Shown in pieces: positions 6,438-16,952 of a DNA stretch of 64,000 nucleotides. Below the pieces are notes generated by a model. That model was given only the letters and a program-made list of their open reading frames with translations, made no database searches and had not been told where the DNA came from. Every line of letters begins with the position of its first letter. Position 1 is the stretch's first letter. Made by a program: the position numbers and the translations under genes. Source of the stretch: an uncultured Prevotellaceae bacterium (GTDB taxonomy: Bacteria > Bacteroidota > Bacteroidia > Bacteroidales > Muribaculaceae); contig ONIL01000007.1 of assembly GCA_900317835.1 (NCBI GenBank), positions 3,527-67,526 on the forward strand, written 5' to 3'.

Positions 6438-6552
6438 TATTCTAAAGGGCAAAATTACAAAACATCCATACAAGAAATGTGCCATTGACTGTTTTGAAAT
6501 TACAAAAAATGCAAAAAAACGTAATTTGTTTCTTAAATTCAAGCAAAATGAT

Positions 6553-6560
6553 TACTTTTG
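6553..6560 (+). promoter_or_regulatory. Bacteroidetes sigma-A -7 element (TACTTTTG) for the DUF5689-like gene
   Basis: Matches TAnnTTTG; context nearly identical to the promoter at 10258. Confidence 0.7.
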
Positions 6561-6621
6561 CGGCCAATTTAAAACAAGGTAGTGATGTACTGGTGTTATA
6601 TCTACACACTTTTTATAAAAA

Positions 6622-6730
6622 GTAGCGGGGAAACGATAAAACCGTTCTTCAAACCGCTGCGACATGCTGACGCTACCACTGGCTGCGCTTCATTAGATGG
6701 AATAGACCGCTAATGTGGCGCGATTTTTTT
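6622..6730 (+). promoter_or_regulatory. Structured 5' leader, copy 1 (stem-loop plus terminator-like hairpin); candidate riboswitch/attenuator
   Basis: GTAGCGG/CCGCTGC stem 6622-6660; hairpin 6685-6721 followed by T7 at 6724-6730; paralogous copy at 10333-10444. Confidence 0.7.
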
Positions 6731-6789
6731 GGATGTTGTTGCCCATTTGGGCATTGCTTATATCACATACTATTTATTTTTTCAGAACT

Positions 6790-8238
6790 ATGCAACACAA
6801 AGCCAAATTCTCCATGTTGGCAGCGATGTCCTGTAAGGATTCGACTGCATGGTCCCTGTCGGCAGTGCGTCACGACCGACGACTCTTCAAGCGCTTGCTC
6901 ATTTACTGTGGAATGCTATTCATGCTGGTTATTGCCACCTCGTGCAACGAGGAATTCGACATTCCACCGATGAAGTCCCCTCCCCCTCCCAACATGTCCA
7001 TCGCCGAGTTCAAGGCCAAGTACTGGCGCGACACGGTTAACTACGTTGACACCGTTCAAGACAACGATATCATCCACGGCTGGATCACCAGCACCGATGA
7101 GACGGGCAACATTTACAACACCATCTACATCATGGATGAGTCGGGCGTTGGGCTGCCCATCGCCGTGAGCAGCAGGGACATGTACACCCGATATCGCCTT
7201 GGAGCCGAAGTCGTATTGGAGATGAAGGGATATCATGTGGGCAAAATCACAGGCATGATGCAAGTGGGAGCACCCTACTTCTACAAGAACACTAATGTGT
7301 GGGAAACCAGCACCATGAATGAAGACACCTGGAAAAAACTGGGTCAAGTCAACGGATTTCCCGACTTGAGCAAGGTGGATACCACCGAGATCACCCTTGA
7401 TCAAATCCTAGGCAAAAACGACGCCGAGACCCTCATCAAATATCAGGGGTTGCTGGTGCGCATCAATGATGTGACCTTTGAGAACGCCAATGGCATAACC
7501 ACTTATTCCGATAAGAATCAAACGGTCAACCGCCGCATTGCGGACAGCAACGGCAAGAAACTGAATGTGCGCATGAGCAACTATGCCACCTTCGGCGATT
7601 CCATCCTGCCCAAGAGCGGTGTCGATATCGTGGGCTTGTTGGGCTACTTTGCCACCAAGGCTAACCCCAACGATCCATGGCAAATCTATCTGCGCACCAT
7701 CGATGATGTGATTGTTCGCCCGCCTCGCCCCGTGACGTGGGCCGATTTTGAGACCATCAGCGGGCACACCACCAATATGGGGACCTTTACCACCGAGGCC
7801 GGATGGGTGGCCACAAACTGCATGATGTTTGAAGGCGGCGACAAGGATGCCAATCCCGTTTTCGCCTTTATCGGCACAGCCACTAACAAACTCGCCACCT
7901 ACGCCAAGGCCCCGACCTTGAACGGTGGCACCGATGCCGTGGGGACTGTCGTCTCGCCTGTTCTTAACGGCGGCATGACGCGTCTGCGGTTTTCCTACGG
8001 CTACGCTTTCTCAGGCAAACAGCTTGCTTGTCGCGTCGATGTCAAGCAGAACGGCACGGTGGTCAAGTCATGGACGGTCGCCAATAATGACGTACAGACT
8101 AAAACCGCCTATTCCTTTGATGAGGAATGCCGTGTGGAGGGCGAATTCACCATCGAGTTCACTAACCTTTGCCCATCGGGCAAAACAGGCAAGACCGACC
8201 GGTTATCGATCTGGAACATCAACTGGGATATTGAATGA
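6790..8238 (+). CDS. DUF5689-like OB-fold surface lipoprotein
   Basis: Lipobox IATSC-NEEFD; IHGWITSTDETGNIYNTIYIMDESG, LVRINDVTF, VRMSNYATF and VDIVGLL motifs recalled for DUF5689 proteins; start uncertain (6790 or 6913). Confidence 0.75.
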   Translation: MQHKAKFSMLAAMSCKDSTAWSLSAVRHDRRLFKRLLIYCGMLFMLVIATSCNEEFDIPPMKSPPPPNMSIAEFKAKYWRDTVNYVDTVQDNDIIHGWITSTDETGNIYNTIYIMDESGVGLPIAVSSRDMYTRYRLGAEVVLEMKGYHVGKITGMMQVGAPYFYKNTNVWETSTMNEDTWKKLGQVNGFPDLSKVDTTEITLDQILGKNDAETLIKYQGLLVRINDVTFENANGITTYSDKNQTVNRRIADSNGKKLNVRMSNYATFGDSILPKSGVDIVGLLGYFATKANPNDPWQIYLRTIDDVIVRPPRPVTWADFETISGHTTNMGTFTTEAGWVATNCMMFEGGDKDANPVFAFIGTATNKLATYAKAPTLNGGTDAVGTVVSPVLNGGMTRLRFSYGYAFSGKQLACRVDVKQNGTVVKSWTVANNDVQTKTAYSFDEECRVEGEFTIEFTNLCPSGKTGKTDRLSIWNINWDIE

Positions 8239-8301
8239 ACGTTTTCCTCATGACACTTGCAAGAGTGAGATAAAACTAGTATCTTTGCGGTTGATGAAGT
8301 G

Positions 8302-8898
8302 ATGGAGAACAAATATGAAAATATCATCATTGGCATCGACCCCGGCACCAACGTGATGGGATATGCCCTGCTGGGGGTGAACGACAAGACACCACAACTC
8401 ATTGTCATGGGCGTGCTGCAGCTCAACCGCATGGAGGACCATTACATGAGGCTGAGGCACATCTATGAGCGCGTGAGCGGCGTGATTGCCGAGTACATGC
8501 CCGACGAGATGGCGATCGAGGCTCCGTTCTACGGCAAGAACGTGCAGTCAATGCTCAAACTGGGACGCGCCCAGGGCGTGGCGATGGTCGCAGCCTTGAA
8601 CCGCGAAATTCCCATCACCGAGTATGAGCCGCGCAAGATCAAAATGGCCATCACGGGTAACGGTGCAGCCAGCAAGGAACAGGTGGCGATGATGCTGCAA
8701 CGCACGCTGCACATCGACGAGGCCCAGATGCCCGCCCTACTCGACGCCACCGATGCCCTTGCCGCCGCCTTGTGCCACTTCTATGAGCGCCAAAAGCCCA
8801 TCTCCAGCCACGGCACCAAGTCCTGGAAGGCTTTCATTGCCCAACATCCTGACCGCGTGTCCAACCGCTCAAAAGAGCCCACCGCCAAGGCGCAATAG
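8302..8898 (+). CDS. ruvC: Holliday junction resolvase RuvC
   Basis: [33 protein letters not shown]. Confidence 0.97.
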
Positions 8899-8964
8899 CT
8901 CCTACTATTTCACGGCTAACCGAAACGTTTGTTTTATTACCCAAACAACTAAAATATAAACAAG

Positions 8965-10194
8965 ATGAAAAAGTTATCATTATTATTGTTTCTTGCCCTC
9001 CTTTGGGCTGCGGCCACCCCTGTGCTGGCCGGCTCCACGTTAAATGCCAACCCCGAAAAGAGGGTAATACCGACGACTGGAGTTTTTTATGATGTAGTGT
9101 GCATGTCAGATGTATATGATGTCACAGATACTAATGATGGTTACCTGATAGAGCCATCAGCACCGTCACAGTGCGGCATGCTGGCATTTTGCCGAGAAGA
9201 GGACGACCTCATGTTTGTTAGTCTCTTCAATGACCTCATGCTCATCGAGATTGACCGCGACAACATGAGCGCATTGCTCAATGAAAACTACTCAGAGGAC
9301 AGCAATGTCTCGACATCAGGCTTGCAGACGGTCACCACCGAGATCCACTACTACCTCTACTCAGAAGACTGCTTGAATGGTTTCCATGAAGAATCCAGCC
9401 CAGTGCAGGGCCACATTAATCCCGATGGATCAATCTCATTTGACAGTTTCGTTGTGGAGACCGAGCGCATTGTCACCATTACCAACAGTTGGTCCCATCA
9501 ATTGATTTCATCCGAGACGACAACCAGCCGCAACCTCTACCGCAGCATGGTTTTGGCCAAGCCCAACGGAGTTCACCGCTTCAACAAGCCTGCTGAGCCC
9601 GATCCGGGAACCGTGCAGCCAATGAGTAATGGTTTCGACAATCTGCCGAGGATTGTGCCCGTTTACATCGTTCAGCGCGACGACACGGTCATGGTGTGGA
9701 ACCTCTATAACATGGGAGGATTCAACCGCATGGTCATCGACAACGGTTTCTTTGACTGGCCATGGCAGCAGTGCGGCTATAACGAGGATGGTGGCTGCTG
9801 GTACAATTACACGGCCTATCGTTCCTATACACCCCAAGGAGAACCCATGCTTTCGGTAGTAACCTATCTGCACCGTCTGCAAGGAGTAAAAGGCAAGGTG
9901 ACACAGGATGGAATGACATGGGGCAACACCACATTTGGCAACGGCAAGGGAGTATGGTCGGCCGATATATTCTGCGACAACACCTTGACTTTCAAAGACA
10001 AGAGCTTTGACTTCACACCCACGGTTTGGAACATCAGCGACGTGACACGGGTGATTGACGGCATCTTGACCAGTGCTCCCGAAATCATCCTCCTGCCATC
10101 CAGTGACCCGAATGATGATGGAGACGTGGACATCAGCGACGTCACTTGGCTCATCGACAGGCTTCTCCTTGGCAATCCCGACAACGGTCAATAG
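8965..10194 (+). CDS. Secreted protein with degenerate C-terminal dockerin
   Basis: SPI signal peptide (AATPVLA); C-terminal NISDVTRVID...DPNDDGDVDISDVTWLIDRLL. Confidence 0.75.
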   Translation: MKKLSLLLFLALLWAAATPVLAGSTLNANPEKRVIPTTGVFYDVVCMSDVYDVTDTNDGYLIEPSAPSQCGMLAFCREEDDLMFVSLFNDLMLIEIDRDNMSALLNENYSEDSNVSTSGLQTVTTEIHYYLYSEDCLNGFHEESSPVQGHINPDGSISFDSFVVETERIVTITNSWSHQLISSETTTSRNLYRSMVLAKPNGVHRFNKPAEPDPGTVQPMSNGFDNLPRIVPVYIVQRDDTVMVWNLYNMGGFNRMVIDNGFFDWPWQQCGYNEDGGCWYNYTAYRSYTPQGEPMLSVVTYLHRLQGVKGKVTQDGMTWGNTTFGNGKGVWSADIFCDNTLTFKDKSFDFTPTVWNISDVTRVIDGILTSAPEIILLPSSDPNDDGDVDISDVTWLIDRLLLGNPDNGQ

Positions 10195-10257
10195 TATTTT
10201 CTGCCAAATGTTGATGCATTGTTAATAAAAAAAATTGTCAGATAAGAAAAATATGAC

Positions 10258-10265
10258 TACTTTTG
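10258..10265 (+). promoter_or_regulatory. Sigma-A -7 element (TACTTTTG) for the TonB-dependent transporter operon
   Basis: TAnnTTTG match in an AT-rich intergenic region. Confidence 0.7.
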
Positions 10266-10328
10266 CAGGCGAAAATATGACGCGTTTTTAAAGTGAAAAT
10301 ACATTCTTTTGGCATACCCTTTAGGATA

Positions 10329-10444
10329 TCTTGTAGCGGTGAGGCGGCAAGCCAGTTCTATAACCCGCTGCAAGAAAGTATAGCCAGCAACACACGCGCC
10401 ACATTAGACGGGGGATATTCCGCTAATGTGGCGCGAATTCTTTT
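10329..10444 (+). promoter_or_regulatory. Structured 5' leader, copy 2; candidate riboswitch/attenuator
   Basis: TCTTGTAGCGG/CCGCTGCAAGA stem; CGCGCCACATTAG-A-CGG/CCG-CTAATGTGGCGCG hairpin 10395-10435, then ATTCTTTT. Confidence 0.7.
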
Positions 10445-10517
10445 GTCAAAAAGCAATAGAAACAAACAATTTTTTAATAATTCATCATTTTTTCATTCAC
10501 TTAAACAAGTTTTTAAC

Positions 10518-13500
10518 ATGTTGAGAACAGTAAAGCTTTTAGCATTGGTGGCAATGTTCTTTGTAGCATTGTCGTCAAGCGCTCAGGTGACGACCTCGGC
10601 ACTGTCGGGTGTTGTGACCGATGAAAACCAGCAGGCGATGATTGGTGCTACGATTACCGCCCTGCACACCCCTTCGGGCACGAAGTACAACGCCGTGACC
10701 AATATGGACGGCCGTTACACCATCCAGGGTATGCGTCCTGGTGGCCCGTACACCGTGACGGTGAGCTATGTGGGCTATGAGTCCCGCAGCATTAATGGGG
10801 TGTCACTGCAACTGGCCGAGACCTCAAATCTTGACTTCGACATGAGTGTTGACGCTAATGCGCTGGGTGAAGTTGTCGTTACCGCGGCTGCCACCAAGTT
10901 CAGGGCTGAAAAGACCGGTGCTGCTACCAATATCAACAGCGCACAGATCACCAATCTGCCCACCGTGACCCGCAGTCTGACTGACATTACCCGCCTGTCG
11001 CCCTACGGTGGTAACGGCATGAGCTTTGCCGGTACCGACGGTCGTACCGCCAACTTCACGGTCGATGGTGCAAACTTCAACAACAACTTCGGTTTGAGCG
11101 ACAATCTGCCTGGTGGTGGCAACCCCATCAGCATTGAAGCCATCGAGGAGATGCAGGTTGTGATTTCACCCTACGACGTTCGTCAGACCAACTTCATTGG
11201 TGGTGGTGTGAATGCTGTGACCAAGAGCGGTACCAACAAATTCCGCGGCAGTGCTTACATCTTCCACCGCAACGAGAACATGCGTGGTGATGCTGTTGAG
11301 CGCACCCAAATCGGTCAGGCACGCGAGAAATTCAAGGTGACTACCTACGGTGCTACCATCGGCGGCCCGATCATCAAGGACAAGCTGTTCTTCTTTGTGA
11401 ACGGTGAGATGACCAAGCAACCGACCATCGTCAACATGTGGCGTGCTTCACAGAACGGTGTTGCCGTTCCTGACCAGTACATCTCTCGCACCTCCCTGGC
11501 CGACCTGGAGCGCGTGAGCAATTTCGTAAAGAGCAAATATGGCTATGACACGGGTTCATGGACCAACTTCCCCGCCGACGAGAACAACTACAAGCTGCTC
11601 GCCCGCCTGGACTGGAACATCAACCATGACCACCACTTGGCCCTGCGCTACAACTACACCAAGAACCGCTACTGGAGCAATCCCAACGCCACCTCGATGG
11701 ACGGTGGCACCCGTATGGCTACTGCCCGTGTATCTCAGAAGTCCTTCTCGTTTGCCAACTCAATGTATGGCATGGACAACCTGGTACACTCCTTCTCATT
11801 TGACCTGAACAGCCGCCTGAGCGACAACCTGTCGAACCAGTTCCTGGCTACCCTGTCTAAGCTGGACGACATCCGCGCCAGCAACTCGAGCGAGTTCCCC
11901 TTCATCGACATCACCATGACCGATGAGAATGGCGACACCGACAACTACATGGCCCTGGGTTATGAGTTGTTCACCTGGAACAACGCCGTTCACAACACCA
12001 TCTGGAACCTGCGTGACGACGTGACCTGGTACTATGGTAACCACAAGATCATGGGTGGTCTGTCATTTGAGCATCAGATGGCCGACAACCAGTACATGCG
12101 CAATGGTACCGGTTACTACCGCTACAACAGCGTTGACGACTTTATCAACGGTGCCGCTCCCGAGGTCGTTTGCTTGACCTACGGTTACGGTAGCGAGACC
12201 AAGCCTGCTGCCCGCGTGCAGTTCAACAAGGCTGGTATCTATGCTCAGGACGAGTGGAACGTGACCAAGAACTTCAAGCTGACCTACGGTCTGCGTCTGG
12301 ATGGTCTGTTCTTCAATAATGGTGACCTGATCACCAACAACGCCATTCTGGCCCTTGACTACTATGACAACGACGGCAACGTCCGCCACATCGACACCGG
12401 CAAGTGGCCGAGCAGCAACCTGATCGTGCAACCCCGCTTGGGCTTCAACTGGGACGTATTTGGCAACAAGGCACTCAGGGTGCGCGGTGGTACGGGTCTG
12501 TTCTCGGGCCGTCTGCCCCTGGTATTCTTCACCAACATGCCCACCAACGGTGGTCTGGTTCAGTATCAGGCACAGCTCAACAGCAAGAACACCGACATGA
12601 GCCTGTTTGCTGGCGGTCTTGTAACTGACTCCGAGGGACATGCCACTATCACAGCCCTGCGCAACAAACTCATCGAAATGGGTTATCCCGAGAACGTGAC
12701 TTCCGACATGGGTACTGTTCCCTCGGCTGTCAATGGTGTGGATCCCAACTTCAAGATGCCGATGGTATGGAAGACCTCATTGGCTGTTGATTACCAGATT
12801 CCTGTATCGTTCCCCTTCAGCGTAACTATCGAGGGTATCTTCAACAAGAACATCAACGCTGCCAGCATCAGCGACTGGTCTATCCCCAGCGTGGGTGGTT
12901 ATGCACGCTTCAACGGTGCTGACAACCGTCCCATCTATCCCGCCGGTTTCCGCACGGGAACCAAGGCCTTCGTCCTGGAGAACACTAGCCGCGGTTATGG
13001 CTGGATTGGCAACATCACCTTGAATGCTGATCCCACCGACTGGTTGAGCCTGATGGCTGCCTATACCCACACCGTGCAGAAGGAAGTCACCGGTATGCCC
13101 GGTAGCGCTGCTGAGAGTGCCTTCACCTATGTTCCCACCATTGAGGGTCCCAACAACATCAAGCTGCACAACTCGCAGTATGTAACTCCTGACCGTTTCA
13201 TCTTCTCGGCAACCGGTCATGACCACAGCGGTAACCACTACGGCCTGATTTATGAGGCTTGGCGTGGCGGTTACAACTACTCCTACATGATGGCCAACGA
13301 CATGAACGGCGACGGCTACAACTACGACGCACTCTACATCCCCACCGACGAGCAAGTGGCCAACCGCGAGTTCCGCTTCGTGAGCGAGGGTGACAAGAAC
13401 CGCTTCATGGACTATGTACACGCCAACGACTACCTGAAGAACCATCAGGGCGAGTATGCCGAGGCCTATAGCCTGTACAATCCCTGGGTTCACCGCATCG

Positions 13501-13802
13501 ACCTGAGCTACAAGCACGACTTCAATGTGAACGTGTGCGGCGCTAAGCACACCCTGCAGCTGCTCTTTGACGTGAAGAACGTCTTGAACCTGTTCAACTC
13601 GAGCTGGGGCGTGAGCAAGTATCTCAATCCCGAGATCGGCAGCGATCCCCGCATCCTCAAGTATGAGGGCGTTGACGCACAGGGTTACGCCACCTTCTCG
13701 ACTCCCAAGTCGATCGACGGTGCCACCAAGACCTTCGTTCCCAACAAGGCCATCGGTCAGTGCTGGAATGCATCTATCGGTATTAAGTACATCTTTAACT
13801 AA
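10518..13802 (+). CDS. TonB-dependent transporter (Oar-like, with N-terminal carboxypeptidase-regulatory-like domain)
   Basis: SPI (SSSA-Q), LSGVVTDE..MIGATI N-domain, plug motif GRTANFTVDGANFNNNFGL / GGVNAVTKSGTN, C-terminal IGIKYIF; ATG 10518 preferred over GTG 10293. Confidence 0.92.
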   Translation: MLRTVKLLALVAMFFVALSSSAQVTTSALSGVVTDENQQAMIGATITALHTPSGTKYNAVTNMDGRYTIQGMRPGGPYTVTVSYVGYESRSINGVSLQLAETSNLDFDMSVDANALGEVVVTAAATKFRAEKTGAATNINSAQITNLPTVTRSLTDITRLSPYGGNGMSFAGTDGRTANFTVDGANFNNNFGLSDNLPGGGNPISIEAIEEMQVVISPYDVRQTNFIGGGVNAVTKSGTNKFRGSAYIFHRNENMRGDAVERTQIGQAREKFKVTTYGATIGGPIIKDKLFFFVNGEMTKQPTIVNMWRASQNGVAVPDQYISRTSLADLERVSNFVKSKYGYDTGSWTNFPADENNYKLLARLDWNINHDHHLALRYNYTKNRYWSNPNATSMDGGTRMATARVSQKSFSFANSMYGMDNLVHSFSFDLNSRLSDNLSNQFLATLSKLDDIRASNSSEFPFIDITMTDENGDTDNYMALGYELFTWNNAVHNTIWNLRDDVTWYYGNHKIMGGLSFEHQMADNQYMRNGTGYYRYNSVDDFINGAAPEVVCLTYGYGSETKPAARVQFNKAGIYAQDEWNVTKNFKLTYGLRLDGLFFNNGDLITNNAILALDYYDNDGNVRHIDTGKWPSSNLIVQPRLGFNWDVFGNKALRVRGGTGLFSGRLPLVFFTNMPTNGGLVQYQAQLNSKNTDMSLFAGGLVTDSEGHATITALRNKLIEMGYPENVTSDMGTVPSAVNGVDPNFKMPMVWKTSLAVDYQIPVSFPFSVTIEGIFNKNINAASISDWSIPSVGGYARFNGADNRPIYPAGFRTGTKAFVLENTSRGYGWIGNITLNADPTDWLSLMAAYTHTVQKEVTGMPGSAAESAFTYVPTIEGPNNIKLHNSQYVTPDRFIFSATGHDHSGNHYGLIYEAWRGGYNYSYMMANDMNGDGYNYDALYIPTDEQVANREFRFVSEGDKNRFMDYVHANDYLKNHQGEYAEAYSLYNPWVHRIDLSYKHDFNVNVCGAKHTLQLLFDVKNVLNLFNSSWGVSKYLNPEIGSDPRILKYEGVDAQGYATFSTPKSIDGATKTFVPNKAIGQCWNASIGIKYIFN

Positions 13803-13825
13803 TTCCTAAAGACTGAAACAATATT

Positions 13826-15343
13826 ATGAAACTCAAATATTTTATTTCGTTTTTTGCACTGGTAGCCCTCTTGTCGAGCTGCTCGGATGACGATGCGATG
13901 ACATTGTTTGATGAGATTCAGGTTTCGTCGTCCTATGTGGCCATTGATGAGGCTGGTGGATCTAACACGATTACCCTCAACGCCAAGGAAGCTTGGACGT
14001 TTGACTCCGAGGAACTGCCCGAATGGTTGACCGTCAGCCCGATGAACGGTGGTGCCGGTGAGACTAACGTGACCTTCAGCGCTGAAGCTGCCCCCGACGG
14101 CCGCACCGCTGTCCTCCACATTGCTTGTGGCGACAAGAAGCAGACCATCAACGTGATCCAGGGTCTTGCTACCGTTAGCGAGGCTACTTGCGCCGAGGTC
14201 ATTTCAGGCCCCGAGAGCAAAACCTACCGTGTGACCGGTACCGTGAAGTCGATTGTTAACACGACCTACGGTAACTGGTATCTGGAAGATGAGACCGGCG
14301 AGGTATACATCTATGGAACGCTGGATGCCAAGGGTGGCACCAAGAACTTCCTGAGCTGGGGCATGGAGGTTGGTGACATTGTCACCGTCGAGGGTCCCAA
14401 GACCGTTTATAACGGTACTGTAGAGCTGGTTGACGTGACCGTCATCAATATCCAGAAGTCGCTCGTCAAGGTCGAGGGTTATGACCCCGAGGATGCTACC
14501 ATTCCTTTGGAGGGTGGCAACGTGGCCGTTAGCCTGAGCTGCAAGACCAACAACGGCATCTCGGTCGAGATTCCCGAGGATGCCAAGAGCTGGCTGGGCA
14601 TCGTCTCCATCACTGGTGGCGCTGAGCCCGTGGTAACCTTCCATGCCAATGCCAACAATGGCGGCGACCGCAGCACTACTGTAGTCTTCAAGACCACCGA
14701 TGACAAGGGCAAGGAATACACCGCCCAGGCAACTATTTTCCAGAAGGGCGCTATCGTTGCTTGCTCGATTGCCGAGTTCCTGGAGGCTCCTGTGGGCGAC
14801 ACCCAGTACCGCATCACTGGTGTGATCACCCAGGTAGCTAACCCCACCTATGGCAATGTTTACGTTCGTGACTGGTCTGGTGAGACCTACGTCTACGGCA
14901 TCGGCGCCAAGGGTGACTTTGAGGCTGCTGGTCTCAAGGTTGGCGACGTTGTGACCCTCGTGGGTAAGCGCGGCGAGTACAAGGGCGATCCTCAGATGAC
15001 TGGCGCGATCCTCGAGGCCAGCATCCCCGTGACCCCCATCGACATCGACTCGTTCCTGGATCAGCCCGATGATCCCAACACCTACTACATGCTGACGGGT
15101 ACCATTACCGAGATTGCCAACCCGACCTACGGCAACCTCTACCTTGAGGACGAGACCAACTCGGTATATGTCTATGGTACTTATCCCGGATGGGGCGCTA
15201 CTGGCGACAACCGCAAGAATTGGCTTGAGACCGCAGGTATTGAGGTCGGCGACAAGCTCTCGGTTATCGGCGTCAAGAGCACCTATAACGGCACTCCGCA
15301 GTTGGCCAACGGCATCTACTTCTCTCACGAGAAGGCCCAGTAA
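13826..15343 (+). CDS. Surface lipoprotein with BACON domains and three OB-fold repeats
   Basis: Lipobox LLSSC-SDDD; BACON-like WLTVSP/WLGIVS segments; three repeats of (Y/R)xxTGxIxxIxNxTYGNxYLxDxTGxVYVYG...VGDxVT. Confidence 0.8.
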   Translation: MKLKYFISFFALVALLSSCSDDDAMTLFDEIQVSSSYVAIDEAGGSNTITLNAKEAWTFDSEELPEWLTVSPMNGGAGETNVTFSAEAAPDGRTAVLHIACGDKKQTINVIQGLATVSEATCAEVISGPESKTYRVTGTVKSIVNTTYGNWYLEDETGEVYIYGTLDAKGGTKNFLSWGMEVGDIVTVEGPKTVYNGTVELVDVTVINIQKSLVKVEGYDPEDATIPLEGGNVAVSLSCKTNNGISVEIPEDAKSWLGIVSITGGAEPVVTFHANANNGGDRSTTVVFKTTDDKGKEYTAQATIFQKGAIVACSIAEFLEAPVGDTQYRITGVITQVANPTYGNVYVRDWSGETYVYGIGAKGDFEAAGLKVGDVVTLVGKRGEYKGDPQMTGAILEASIPVTPIDIDSFLDQPDDPNTYYMLTGTITEIANPTYGNLYLEDETNSVYVYGTYPGWGATGDNRKNWLETAGIEVGDKLSVIGVKSTYNGTPQLANGIYFSHEKAQ

Positions 15344-15365
15344 GCCAATTACGCATAACATTTCA

Positions 15366-15399
15366 AAAAGGGGAGTCACCATCACGGCGACTCCCTTTT
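15366..15399 (+). terminator. Intrinsic terminator after the TBDT-lipoprotein operon
   Basis: AAAAGGGGAGTCACC-atcac-GGCGACTCCCTTTT. Confidence 0.8.
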
Positions 15400-15414
15400 A
15401 TGTCTCAAACGACC

Positions 15415-15441
15415 GCACGTCTCACGACGTGCCACCCTGCG
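15415..15441. repeat. 27-bp REP-like palindromic repeat, copy 1
   Basis: GCACGTCTCACGACGTGCCACCCTGCG, identical to 15610-15636; internal GCACGT/ACGTGC hairpin. Confidence 0.8.
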
Positions 15442-15542
15442 GCAACAACGTCCCCACAGTGGAGCATCCCGCTACGCGGCAAGCTTCACTTCGGGGCAGG
15501 ATGACACGATCCATCGTGCCGCACCTCTTCAAGGTGCGGTCG

Positions 15543-15574
15543 TTTGCACGTTTCAATTATTATCACTACCTTTG
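15543..15574 (+). promoter_or_regulatory. Sigma-A promoter (TTTG-N20-TACCTTTG) of the phosphodiesterase gene
   Basis: Both -33 and -7 consensus elements with a 20-nt spacer. Confidence 0.75.
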
Positions 15575-15609
15575 TAGAAAATAACAGACACCTTAAGCAA
15601 GGCACAACT

Positions 15610-15636
15610 GCACGTCTCACGACGTGCCACCCTGCG
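15610..15636. repeat. 27-bp REP-like palindromic repeat, copy 2
   Basis: Exact direct repeat of 15415-15441. Confidence 0.8.
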
Positions 15637-15746
15637 ACGTTGGTTTACCCACAGAGGGTGAGTCATAACAGGTTAACAACTATATCAGGTCTTTGACCAG
15701 TTTCAATTGAGTAAATATAGACTAAACTGATATTCATACTAGACAC

Positions 15747-16952
15747 ATGATGATGCGAAGAATTTACCTTTTTATTTTGTTGGCAGCCGTGTTGCCATGG
15801 CAGGCATGGGCGGCAGGAAGTGACACTTACACGGTGATCATCTCGCTCGACGGCCTGCGGTGGGACTATCTCGACACCTATGACGTGCCATTCTTGAACC
15901 AGCTGGCGCGCGAGGGTGTCAAGGCGGTGATGCAACCGTCATTCCCGAGCAAGACGTTCCCCAACCACTACACGCTGGCGACAGGTCTCACGCCCGACCA
16001 CCACGGCATCATTGCCAACACCTTTTGGGATCGTGAAAAGGGCGTTGAGTTCTCATTGGGCAACAAGGTGACTCGTGCCGATGGCAGTTACTACGGCGGC
16101 GACCCCGTGTGGCTCACGGCCAAGCATCAGGGCGTGAAGACCGCCACCGTGTTTTGGGTGGGTAGCGATGTTGCCGTCAATGGAGAGCATCCCACCTACT
16201 GGCGTGACTACCAAACAGAGCAACTCGGCTTTGAGGAGCGTGTCGATGAAATCATCCGCCTGTTCAAGTTGCCCGAGAAGGACCGTCCCCACCTGGTGAT
16301 GGCCTACTTTGAGGAGCCTGACCGCAGCGGCCACAACTACGGACCGATGAACAGGTTGACACGTCGTGCGATGGAGGACATGGACCTGCTGTTGAGCAAC
16401 CTGTGGGCCCGCATCCAGTTACTGCCCATTGCCGACAAGGTGAATTTCATCATCACGGGCGACCACGGCATGACCAGCGTGGACCCCAAGCGATTTGTCG
16501 ATATCGACGACGTGGTGCCCAAGCAGTGGTATGACCGCTTCTGCAACGACTACCCCACCCTCATCTATGCCAGCGCGCCCGAATACATTGACTCGATTTG
16601 TAACGCATTGCGGGGTGTGGACCACATCCGCGCTTGGAAAAAGCAAGATGTGCCTGCCTATCTGGGTTACGGCACCAACAAGAACATGGGCGATGTGGTA
16701 GTGCTGCCCGACGTGGGCTGGCTCTTTGCCGACAAGCCCAGCAAGAAACAGCGCGGCAGCCACGGCTTTGACCACATGGCTGCCGACATGCAGGTGGGAT
16801 TCCGCGCCGTCGGTCCTGACTTCAAGGTGGGCTATGAGAAACCTGACCGCTTCCGCAACGTGTGCATCTATCCGCTGTTGTGCTACCTGCTAGGGGTAAC
16901 GCCATCGCCCAACGACGGCTCTCTTGACGAAGTGCGCGACATGCTGCGTTGA
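15747..16952 (+). CDS. Nucleotide pyrophosphatase/phosphodiesterase (alkaline phosphatase superfamily), secreted
   Basis: IISLDGLRWD, FPSKTFPNHYTLATG catalytic Thr, EEPDRSGH, TGDHGM, GSHGF; SPI signal. Confidence 0.92.
   Translation: MMMRRIYLFILLAAVLPWQAWAAGSDTYTVIISLDGLRWDYLDTYDVPFLNQLAREGVKAVMQPSFPSKTFPNHYTLATGLTPDHHGIIANTFWDREKGVEFSLGNKVTRADGSYYGGDPVWLTAKHQGVKTATVFWVGSDVAVNGEHPTYWRDYQTEQLGFEERVDEIIRLFKLPEKDRPHLVMAYFEEPDRSGHNYGPMNRLTRRAMEDMDLLLSNLWARIQLLPIADKVNFIITGDHGMTSVDPKRFVDIDDVVPKQWYDRFCNDYPTLIYASAPEYIDSICNALRGVDHIRAWKKQDVPAYLGYGTNKNMGDVVVLPDVGWLFADKPSKKQRGSHGFDHMAADMQVGFRAVGPDFKVGYEKPDRFRNVCIYPLLCYLLGVTPSPNDGSLDEVRDMLR

Follow-up and report, generated by a model that had tools for sequence, protein, structure and literature searches.

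A candidate nucleic-acid uptake locus with an Oar-type transporter, OB-fold lipoproteins and a nucleotide pyrophosphatase in an uncultured Muribaculaceae bacterium

What might be imported by a TonB-dependent transporter (TBDT) that is encoded beside OB-fold lipoproteins and a phosphodiesterase, in a locus with neither SusD nor a glycoside hydrolase? The question is raised by a locus at approximately 6.5-17 kb of a 64,000-nt stretch of contig ONIL01000007.1 (assembly GCA_900317835.1, an uncultured rumen bacterium placed in the Muribaculaceae); the whole stretch is referred to below as the window. All features of the locus are on the + strand, and its six genes, each with an unbroken frame, encode a short DUF5689 lipoprotein, RuvC, a secreted protein with a dockerin, an Oar-type TBDT, a lipoprotein of BACON and OB domains, and a nucleotide pyrophosphatase/phosphodiesterase (NPP). 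The same gene list had been drawn up in an earlier reading of the bare letters (the sequence-only reading), and it was borne out in full by Pfam and NCBIfam, including its lack of SusD and glycoside hydrolases, for which the scan of 5.5-19 kb gave no family match. Judged from the conserved pairing of the genes for the TBDT and the OB lipoprotein, the grouping of these genes goes beyond chance.

A described system for comparison is the ddbABCDEF locus of Bacteroides thetaiotaomicron (BT3558-BT3563; Sharan et al., PNAS 2025; PMC12478041), a DNA-utilization locus for which a requirement in the depletion of exogenous DNA is one criterion. It encodes the TBDT DdbC, next to it the DUF5689 lipoprotein DdbD, and nucleases that are secreted or periplasmic; among its subtypes (Bt1, Bt2, Pv1 and Pv2), Pv2 has no secreted nuclease in the locus. 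The reading that we consider probable, if not strongly so, is that the window region encodes a capture, import and digestion system for extracellular fragments of DNA, RNA or both that is analogous to ddb but employs another pair of transporter and binding protein.

The transporter cassette and its enzyme neighbours

A scan of one genome per species returned at least 572 relatives of the TBDT, and the best 80 loci (67-93% identity) were kept; they belong to rumen Muribaculaceae, Prevotella, Paludibacter, Proteiniphilum, Mariniphaga, Prolixibacteraceae and Limibacterium. The neighbour counts given here cover 79 of the related loci. A triple-OB lipoprotein lies directly 3' of the TBDT in 74 of the 79, and these two genes are referred to as the cassette. 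A phosphodiester-cleaving enzyme stands beside it in at least 31 loci, and its identity varies: NPP is found in 15, mostly in the Muribaculaceae closest to the window, where the order TBDT-OB-NPP is kept in all but two of the 14 closest loci (NPP comes after the OB gene in 13 of the closest), lipoproteins of the BACON-Endonuclease_NS type are found in 12, Endonuclease I is found in four (some with DUF5689 and a type IX secretion system tail), and EEP3 in at least one. Four of the 12 BACON-Endonuclease_NS lipoproteins carry an inserted DUF5689 module and lie directly 5' of the TBDT.

At least 16 of the 79 loci have an adjacent nuclease, whereas the nuclease density of the window genome predicts about 3%, and this adjacency requires at least seven independent changes on the TBDT tree. 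It is chiefly on this recurrence of nucleases beside the cassette that the case for a nucleic-acid substrate stands. Cassette-side nucleases bearing a DUF5689 module occur at L081, L083, L089, L092, L101, L110 and G077, and at G006, L094, L113 and L114 the cassette adjoins an EEP nuclease and a DdbC-like TBDT, with or without DdbD; in this group, BACON-Endonuclease_NS, EEP, DdbC-like TBDT and DUF5689 genes beside the cassette make up a ddbABCD-like set. HMM annotation and synteny comparison, which the sequence-only reading had proposed as a check, place relatives of the cassette next to Endonuclease_NS, Endonuclease_1, EEP and ddbBCD-like genes.

Several other arrangements were seen around the cassette. 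In several rumen and hindgut Bacteroidales, BACON/DUF5689/Endonuclease_NS fusions lie directly 5' of an Oar-type TBDT, so that the nuclease itself holds a DdbD-type module; examples are lipoproteins of about 700 aa at L081:7705-9894, L083:7855-9957, L089:7884-9956 and L092:7855-9933. A second TBDT copy, 32-34% identical, stands beside the cassette at L077:16388-19660, L092:15034-18354, L097:14919-18251 and L113:6021-9326, while at L108:2503-7758 the second copy is 69% identical and is accompanied by a second OB lipoprotein; a tandem duplication of the cassette follows from these cases. A 215-aa CBM9_2-like protein is encoded 3' of the cassette at L035:11541-12188, L091:14973-15620 and L102:15656-16327 (Proteiniphilum, Fermentimonas and one other genome).

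The transporter of the window was listed as an open reading frame (ORF) at 10293-13802, and alignment with its orthologs puts the real start (MLRTVKLL) at 10515. It consists of a CarboxypepD_reg N-domain, a plug and a barrel of the 22-strand-type family OMP_b-brl_4 (E 3e-54), it scores as Oar-like with both PF25183 (185 bits against 30) and PF13620 (78 bits against 32), and it is presumed to be the import channel. More than 8000 homologues were found at E<1e-50, and among the matches listed all were rumen relatives at ≥85% identity. As in SusC/SusD-type polysaccharide utilization loci (PULs), a surface lipoprotein gene directly follows the TBDT gene, there is a periplasmic trimming enzyme and BACON domains act as spacers; unlike in those PULs, SusD and glycoside hydrolases are lacking and the SusC/RagA model (TIGR04056) failed, with 72 bits against a cut-off of 368 and only over the N-terminal 110 residues.

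The BACON/OB lipoprotein, presumed to be the substrate-capture partner of the TBDT, has the lipobox LSS↓C followed by the export signal C-S-D-D. Pfam recognizes two BACON domains and gives a weak tRNA_anti-codon match; an AlphaFold2 (AF2) model built with 40 orthologues (pLDDT 85) shows the order BACON-OB-BACON-OB-OB, with each OB unit having the topology beta1-3/helix/beta4-5. A profile of 31 single OB repeats gave archaeal RPA32 as its best PDB sequence match (E 1.4e-3), then STN1 and RPA1 (range 1e-3 to 0.9). For PF01336 the window protein reaches 25.5 bits, short of the cut-off of 27, while the relatives P0136 and P0204 reach 27.0-27.7, and RMI2 (an RPA-type OB) is also matched in longer relatives. 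Model topology, profile search and the Pfam scores of relatives suggest that the OB folds first called from the letters are RPA-like repeats. Foldseek with the whole model returned only generic Ig-like strings (ciliary proteins, cadherins, SGBP-B) and was uninformative for the OB domains. Nuclease fusions were absent from the ten long family members scanned, which carry only extra OB, BACON, Big_2 and LTD modules. The lipoprotein family comprises about 990 clusters at 50% identity (E≤1e-30), and none of the publications searched joins BACON, OB-fold and TonB-dependent transport.

Within 5.5-19 kb, nuclease domains were found only in the cytoplasmic RuvC, RNase Z and TatD, and the nuclease position is taken by NPP. 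Enzymes of the NPP/ENPP/snake-venom phosphodiesterase family release 5'-mononucleotides from nucleotide diesters and oligonucleotides. The window protein aligns with the Xanthomonas NPP 2GSN (E 2e-70, about 40% identical), and its catalytic site is intact: the Asp of DGLR, the Thr of PSKTFPNHYT, the D/H of EEPDRSGHNYGP, the D/H of GDHGM and the His of GSHGFD are all kept, which leaves the Thr nucleophile and each of the six metal ligands in place. In this it resembles the X. axonopodis enzyme, vertebrate ENPP1/3 and snake-venom phosphodiesterase, and unlike them it would be the operon-linked accessory of an outer-membrane importer. It is probably periplasmic, as it has a signal peptidase I (SPI) signal and no lipobox. 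A promoter-like box (TTTG..TACCTTTG) precedes the gene at 15541-15574. The 27-nt motif GCACGTCTCACGACGTGCCACCCTGCG, which holds a 7-bp palindrome, occurs at 15415-15441 and 15610-15636 and so flanks this box; the pair is found in the genome only at these two sites, is not conserved in the closest relatives and was not used as evidence.

A shared leader and a DdbD-type paralogue

The DUF5689 gene and the TBDT gene are each preceded by a leader of about 190 nt, made up of a promoter box of the Bacteroidetes type (TACTTTTG in copy 1), then a conserved stem, then a terminator hairpin followed by a T-run, and the leader is proposed to be of the attenuator type. Copy 1 ends shortly 5' of the DUF5689 gene. 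The genome has no copies other than these two; Rfam has no family matched by either. The leader was traced through related loci with an nhmmer profile, as DNA BLAST over 150 family genomes was too insensitive and gave nothing usable. It precedes the TBDT in all 14 of the closest loci (L038-L051), and in L046 a leader-DUF5689 module lies directly 5' of the TBDT leader. That the same leader heads both units is the best evidence that they are switched together, and suggests co-regulation of the DUF5689 and TBDT units.

The DUF5689 lipoprotein scores 162.5 bits for PF18942 against a gathering score of 28.6, and its best NCBIfam match, below the cut-off, is the Riemerella M949_1556 lipoprotein family. 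The listed ORF begins with a GTG at 6715, inside the leader terminator, and the ATG at 6790 was taken as the start. The lipobox (...VIATS↓C-NEE) places the export signal C-N-E-E after the lipidated Cys, and the protein is predicted to be surface-exposed; both lipoproteins of the locus carry the C-x-(D/E)(D/E) pattern at this point, which is the surface-export criterion of Sharan et al. (PMC12478041). On contig C23 of the same genome there is a canonical ddb-like set, with genes for a 921-aa TBDT, a 751-aa DUF5689+DUF6359 (DdbD-like) protein and two EEP-type nucleases, then a LytTR two-component system. The window protein matches the 751-aa protein in two blocks (49% and 60% identity) and lacks the middle section of about 300 aa (the DUF6359 region), and by this alignment it is a short paralogue of it. 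The sequence-only reading was sound in linking DUF5689 proteins to DNA-utilisation (ddb-type) loci of gut Bacteroidales: such loci are published (PMC12478041), and the window protein is a DdbD-type paralogue. Short DUF5689 paralogues are present in four of 14 related genomes, and the leader accompanies only that of L046.

The sequence-only reading had suggested that nucleases encoded elsewhere might supply the locus, and the genome indeed has at least nine nuclease genes outside it. Three Endonuclease_NS proteins are encoded on contig C16, and four secreted Endonuclease I proteins (568-772 aa) at C27:29173-30969, C19:27049-29013, C27:77027-79345 and C45:55557-57263. The tails of these four are dockerin in two, dockerin with a CTD-like element in one and CTD-like in one, which suggests that the nucleases are displayed via a genome-wide dockerin system. 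The remaining two are the tandem EEP-type (DdbB-like) genes of contig C23 (L003:6938-8783, - strand), both of which are frame-broken, with family residues ~19-199 and ~253-357 in different frames; the cause is either genuine gene decay or misassembly of a tandem duplicate in this metagenome-assembled genome. There is one 5'-nucleotidase gene.

A scheme in which these parts cooperate can be outlined, for which we infer what is imported, which proteins touch each other, where in the cell each of them sits and what the leader senses. Two transcription units would be controlled by the same attenuator-type leader, the first producing the short DUF5689 surface lipoprotein, with ruvC and the dockerin protein riding downstream, and the second producing the Oar-type TBDT and a surface lipoprotein whose three RPA-like OB folds are spaced by BACON domains, with the periplasmic NPP after them. 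Polymeric nucleic acid would be cut by the secreted or surface nucleases from elsewhere (the four Endonuclease I and three Endonuclease_NS), and the OB lipoprotein, probably together with the DUF5689 lipoprotein, would keep the cut pieces at the transporter's mouth. Oligonucleotides would then enter the periplasm by TonB-driven import, where NPP would yield 5'-mononucleotides, and the 5'-nucleotidase and salvage enzymes of the genome would complete digestion.

Gene layout, ruvC and the dockerin slot

Coordinates are given in Table 1. The flanking genes are of the housekeeping kind (RNase III, FabF, RNase Z, TatD and polyprenyl synthase).

Table 1. Features of the locus, with positions in the window and the evidence for each.
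Feature	Position	Strand	Evidence
Leader copy 1	6543..6734	+	Alignment with copy 2; nhmmer E 1e-51
Short DUF5689 (DdbD-like) lipoprotein	6790 (ATG)..8238	+	PF18942 E 1.8e-47
ruvC	8299..8898	+	PF02075 E 2.6e-41; TIGR00228
409-aa secreted protein, C-terminal dockerin	8965..10194	+	No Pfam/NCBIfam match
Leader copy 2, 5' of the transporter operon	10248..10447	+	Alignment with copy 1
Oar-type TBDT	10515..13802	+	CarboxypepD_reg + OMP_b-brl_4 (Pfam)
BACON-OB-BACON-OB-OB lipoprotein	13826..15343	+	Pfam BACON + AF2 model
G+C-rich hairpin then TTTT, possible (bidirectional) terminator	15371..15395	+	Directly 3' of the lipoprotein stop
NPP	15747..16952	+	PF01663 E 6e-87

The view that this is one locus split by ruvC and a dockerin gene did not survive the comparison with relatives. 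In most of the close ones ruvC lies directly 5' of the TBDT leader (L038, L039, L041, L043-L046, L049-L051, L055 and L059), and RNase Z is another recurrent neighbour, so that the position of ruvC is inherited synteny and not an insertion. It is a housekeeping Holliday-junction resolvase with no functional part in the system, and is probably co-transcribed with the gene upstream. The slot between ruvC and the leader holds differing secreted proteins with dockerin tails (L038:1431-9628, L041:7676-9598, L046:5766-7589 and L050:7793-9556), a pattern that marks it as a hot spot in which dockerin cargo genes vary. The add-on is the DUF5689 gene, together with the leader copy in front of it.

The occupant of the slot in the window ends in a dockerin-like double repeat and has only 14 homologues among 5.8e9 proteins. 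Its AF2 model has a pLDDT of 63, with the N-terminal beta domain as the confident part, and a comparison with PDB folds gave no match (best E 7e-3). With so few homologues, a half-confident model and no fold match, its candidacy as a hidden nuclease was set aside as evidence either way.

Relation to known systems and alternative explanations

The locus resembles ddb in its PUL-type logic without SusD, with a TBDT, OB-type surface lipoproteins and a periplasmic, SPI-signal phosphodiester hydrolase. It differs in that the TBDT has an OMP_b-brl_4/Oar-type barrel, the gene adjoining it encodes the BACON/triple-OB lipoprotein in place of a DUF5689 protein, whose gene belongs to another unit 2 kb away (with two genes and a second promoter and leader in between), the sole enzyme is NPP and not Endonuclease_NS or EEP, and both units have a leader with a terminator. 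The idea of a 'nucleic-acid PUL' is largely supported, on comparative grounds throughout, by the nuclease and NPP neighbours, the DdbD paralogue, the apparently RPA-like OB folds and the NPP site, while the locus is not simply ddb. For the transporter the comparison used proxies, namely three DdbC-like TBDTs beside DUF5689 and EEP genes (on C23 and at G006 and L114). Whether it corresponds to the published Pv-type DdbC was approached indirectly: the homologues listed for the TBDT were rumen relatives, the OB lipoprotein is present in 19 of a sample of 251 Bacteroidaceae-family genomes, all of them small (2.2-3.6 Mb) except the query's own (G448, 4.2 Mb), and B. vulgatus keeps the BT3555-64 region minus BT3563 (PMC8851478). 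This evidence leans against such an identity.

Several observations weigh against a nucleic-acid substrate or against a kinship with ddb. BLASTP of the TBDT with the three proxies gave nothing significant past the N-terminal domain, and hhalign aligned only residues 9-92 with them (probability 70%); the TBDT thus has no detectable homology to these proxies of DdbC, and a definition that is anchored, as published, on DdbC homology leaves the window locus outside ddb. In 48 of the 79 cassettes there is no recognizable nucleic-acid enzyme within five genes. The gap between the OB and NPP genes is 403 nt in the window and contains a terminator-like hairpin (50-290 nt in relatives). The likeness of the OB units to RPA is weak (E 1e-3), and that to the first OB unit of DUF5689 (hhalign probability 20-57%) is only suggestive. 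The lipoprotein's domains, three OB and two BACON, are without exception acidic (pI 4.1-4.7, family medians 4.5-5.0), which is unusual for charge-driven DNA binding, and DNA binding by DdbD itself rests on structural similarity only.

Some of these points would fit two unrelated neighbours, the DUF5689 protein serving the DdbC-type TBDT of C23 and the cassette importing free nucleotides, dinucleotide cofactors open to cleavage by NPP (NAD, FAD, nucleotide sugars) or some other anionic phosphodiester polymer. The transporter that is not DdbC-like, the acidic OB domains and the cassettes that stand alone all agree with this, and so does the fact that 12 of the 14 closest relatives have no DUF5689 gene here; NPP enzymes, moreover, also split nucleotide pyrophosphates. 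We nevertheless regard this explanation as unlikely, since the leader is limited to these two sites in the genome and the pairing recurs in L046, other lineages have polymer-cutting endonucleases next to the cassette, often in fusion with DUF5689, and in four genomes the cassette is physically joined to ddbBCD-like sets. Still less probable is a system mainly for scavenging phosphate from organic phosphodiesters under phosphate limitation, where the leader would sense phosphate or nucleotide status and the gain of carbon, nitrogen and nucleobases would be secondary. The rumen is usually phosphate-rich, and a domain scan of the neighbouring ORFs found no phosphate transporter or PhoBR genes near the locus, although NPP belongs to the alkaline-phosphatase superfamily (with weak matches to the PhnA, PafA and PhoY models) and replaces nucleases in this clade, and DNA is a poor sole carbon source for B. 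thetaiotaomicron (PMC12478041).

Least probable of all, and very much so, is DNA uptake for natural transformation and not for nutrition, with the nearby ruvC serving recombination. The precedent is Riemerella anatipestifer, in which a pair related to DdbCD, the CarboxypepD_reg TBDT RA0C_RS04915 and the DUF5689 protein RA0C_RS04920, is essential for natural transformation (PMC8459023), and ruvC is indeed in the same gene string and conserved 5' of the operon in relatives. The window locus shares with that pair a DUF5689 surface protein and a TBDT headed by CarboxypepD_reg, but its TBDT is of a different family, there is no competence evidence in the locus, and the phosphodiesterase attached to it would destroy incoming strands. 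The adjacency of ruvC is limited to one Muribaculaceae lineage and looks inherited along with RNase Z, and gut Bacteroidales were not transformed consistently in the ddb study (PMC12478041).

A wider proposal is possible, which we put forward only tentatively. The cassette, for which there are some 1000 clusters (50% identity) and upwards of 570 species-level genomes, might be a second outer-membrane nucleic-acid importer of Bacteroidales, evolutionarily separate from DdbCD: its OB folds, which are RPA-like, aromatic-rich and acidic, would suit single-stranded oligonucleotides or RNA, while DdbCD would handle duplex DNA. Lineages would plug in Endonuclease_NS, Endonuclease I, EEP or, in rumen Muribaculaceae, NPP, and the attenuator leader of this clade would switch on both the cassette and the DdbD paralogue.

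Nucleic acids in the rumen and gut are a large, fast-turning pool of phosphorus, nitrogen and nucleobases, and their uptake by Bacteroidales has been experimentally tractable only since the ddb work of 2025. The NPP variant suggests a reliance on community or distal nucleases, with digestion finished in the periplasm, and the duplicated leader provides a handle on the signal that controls the system. If the proposal is true, surveys anchored on DdbC would overlook a large share of what gut and rumen communities can do with nucleic acids, and the triple-OB lipoprotein would add a new class to the surface proteins that bind substrates for TonB-dependent transporters.

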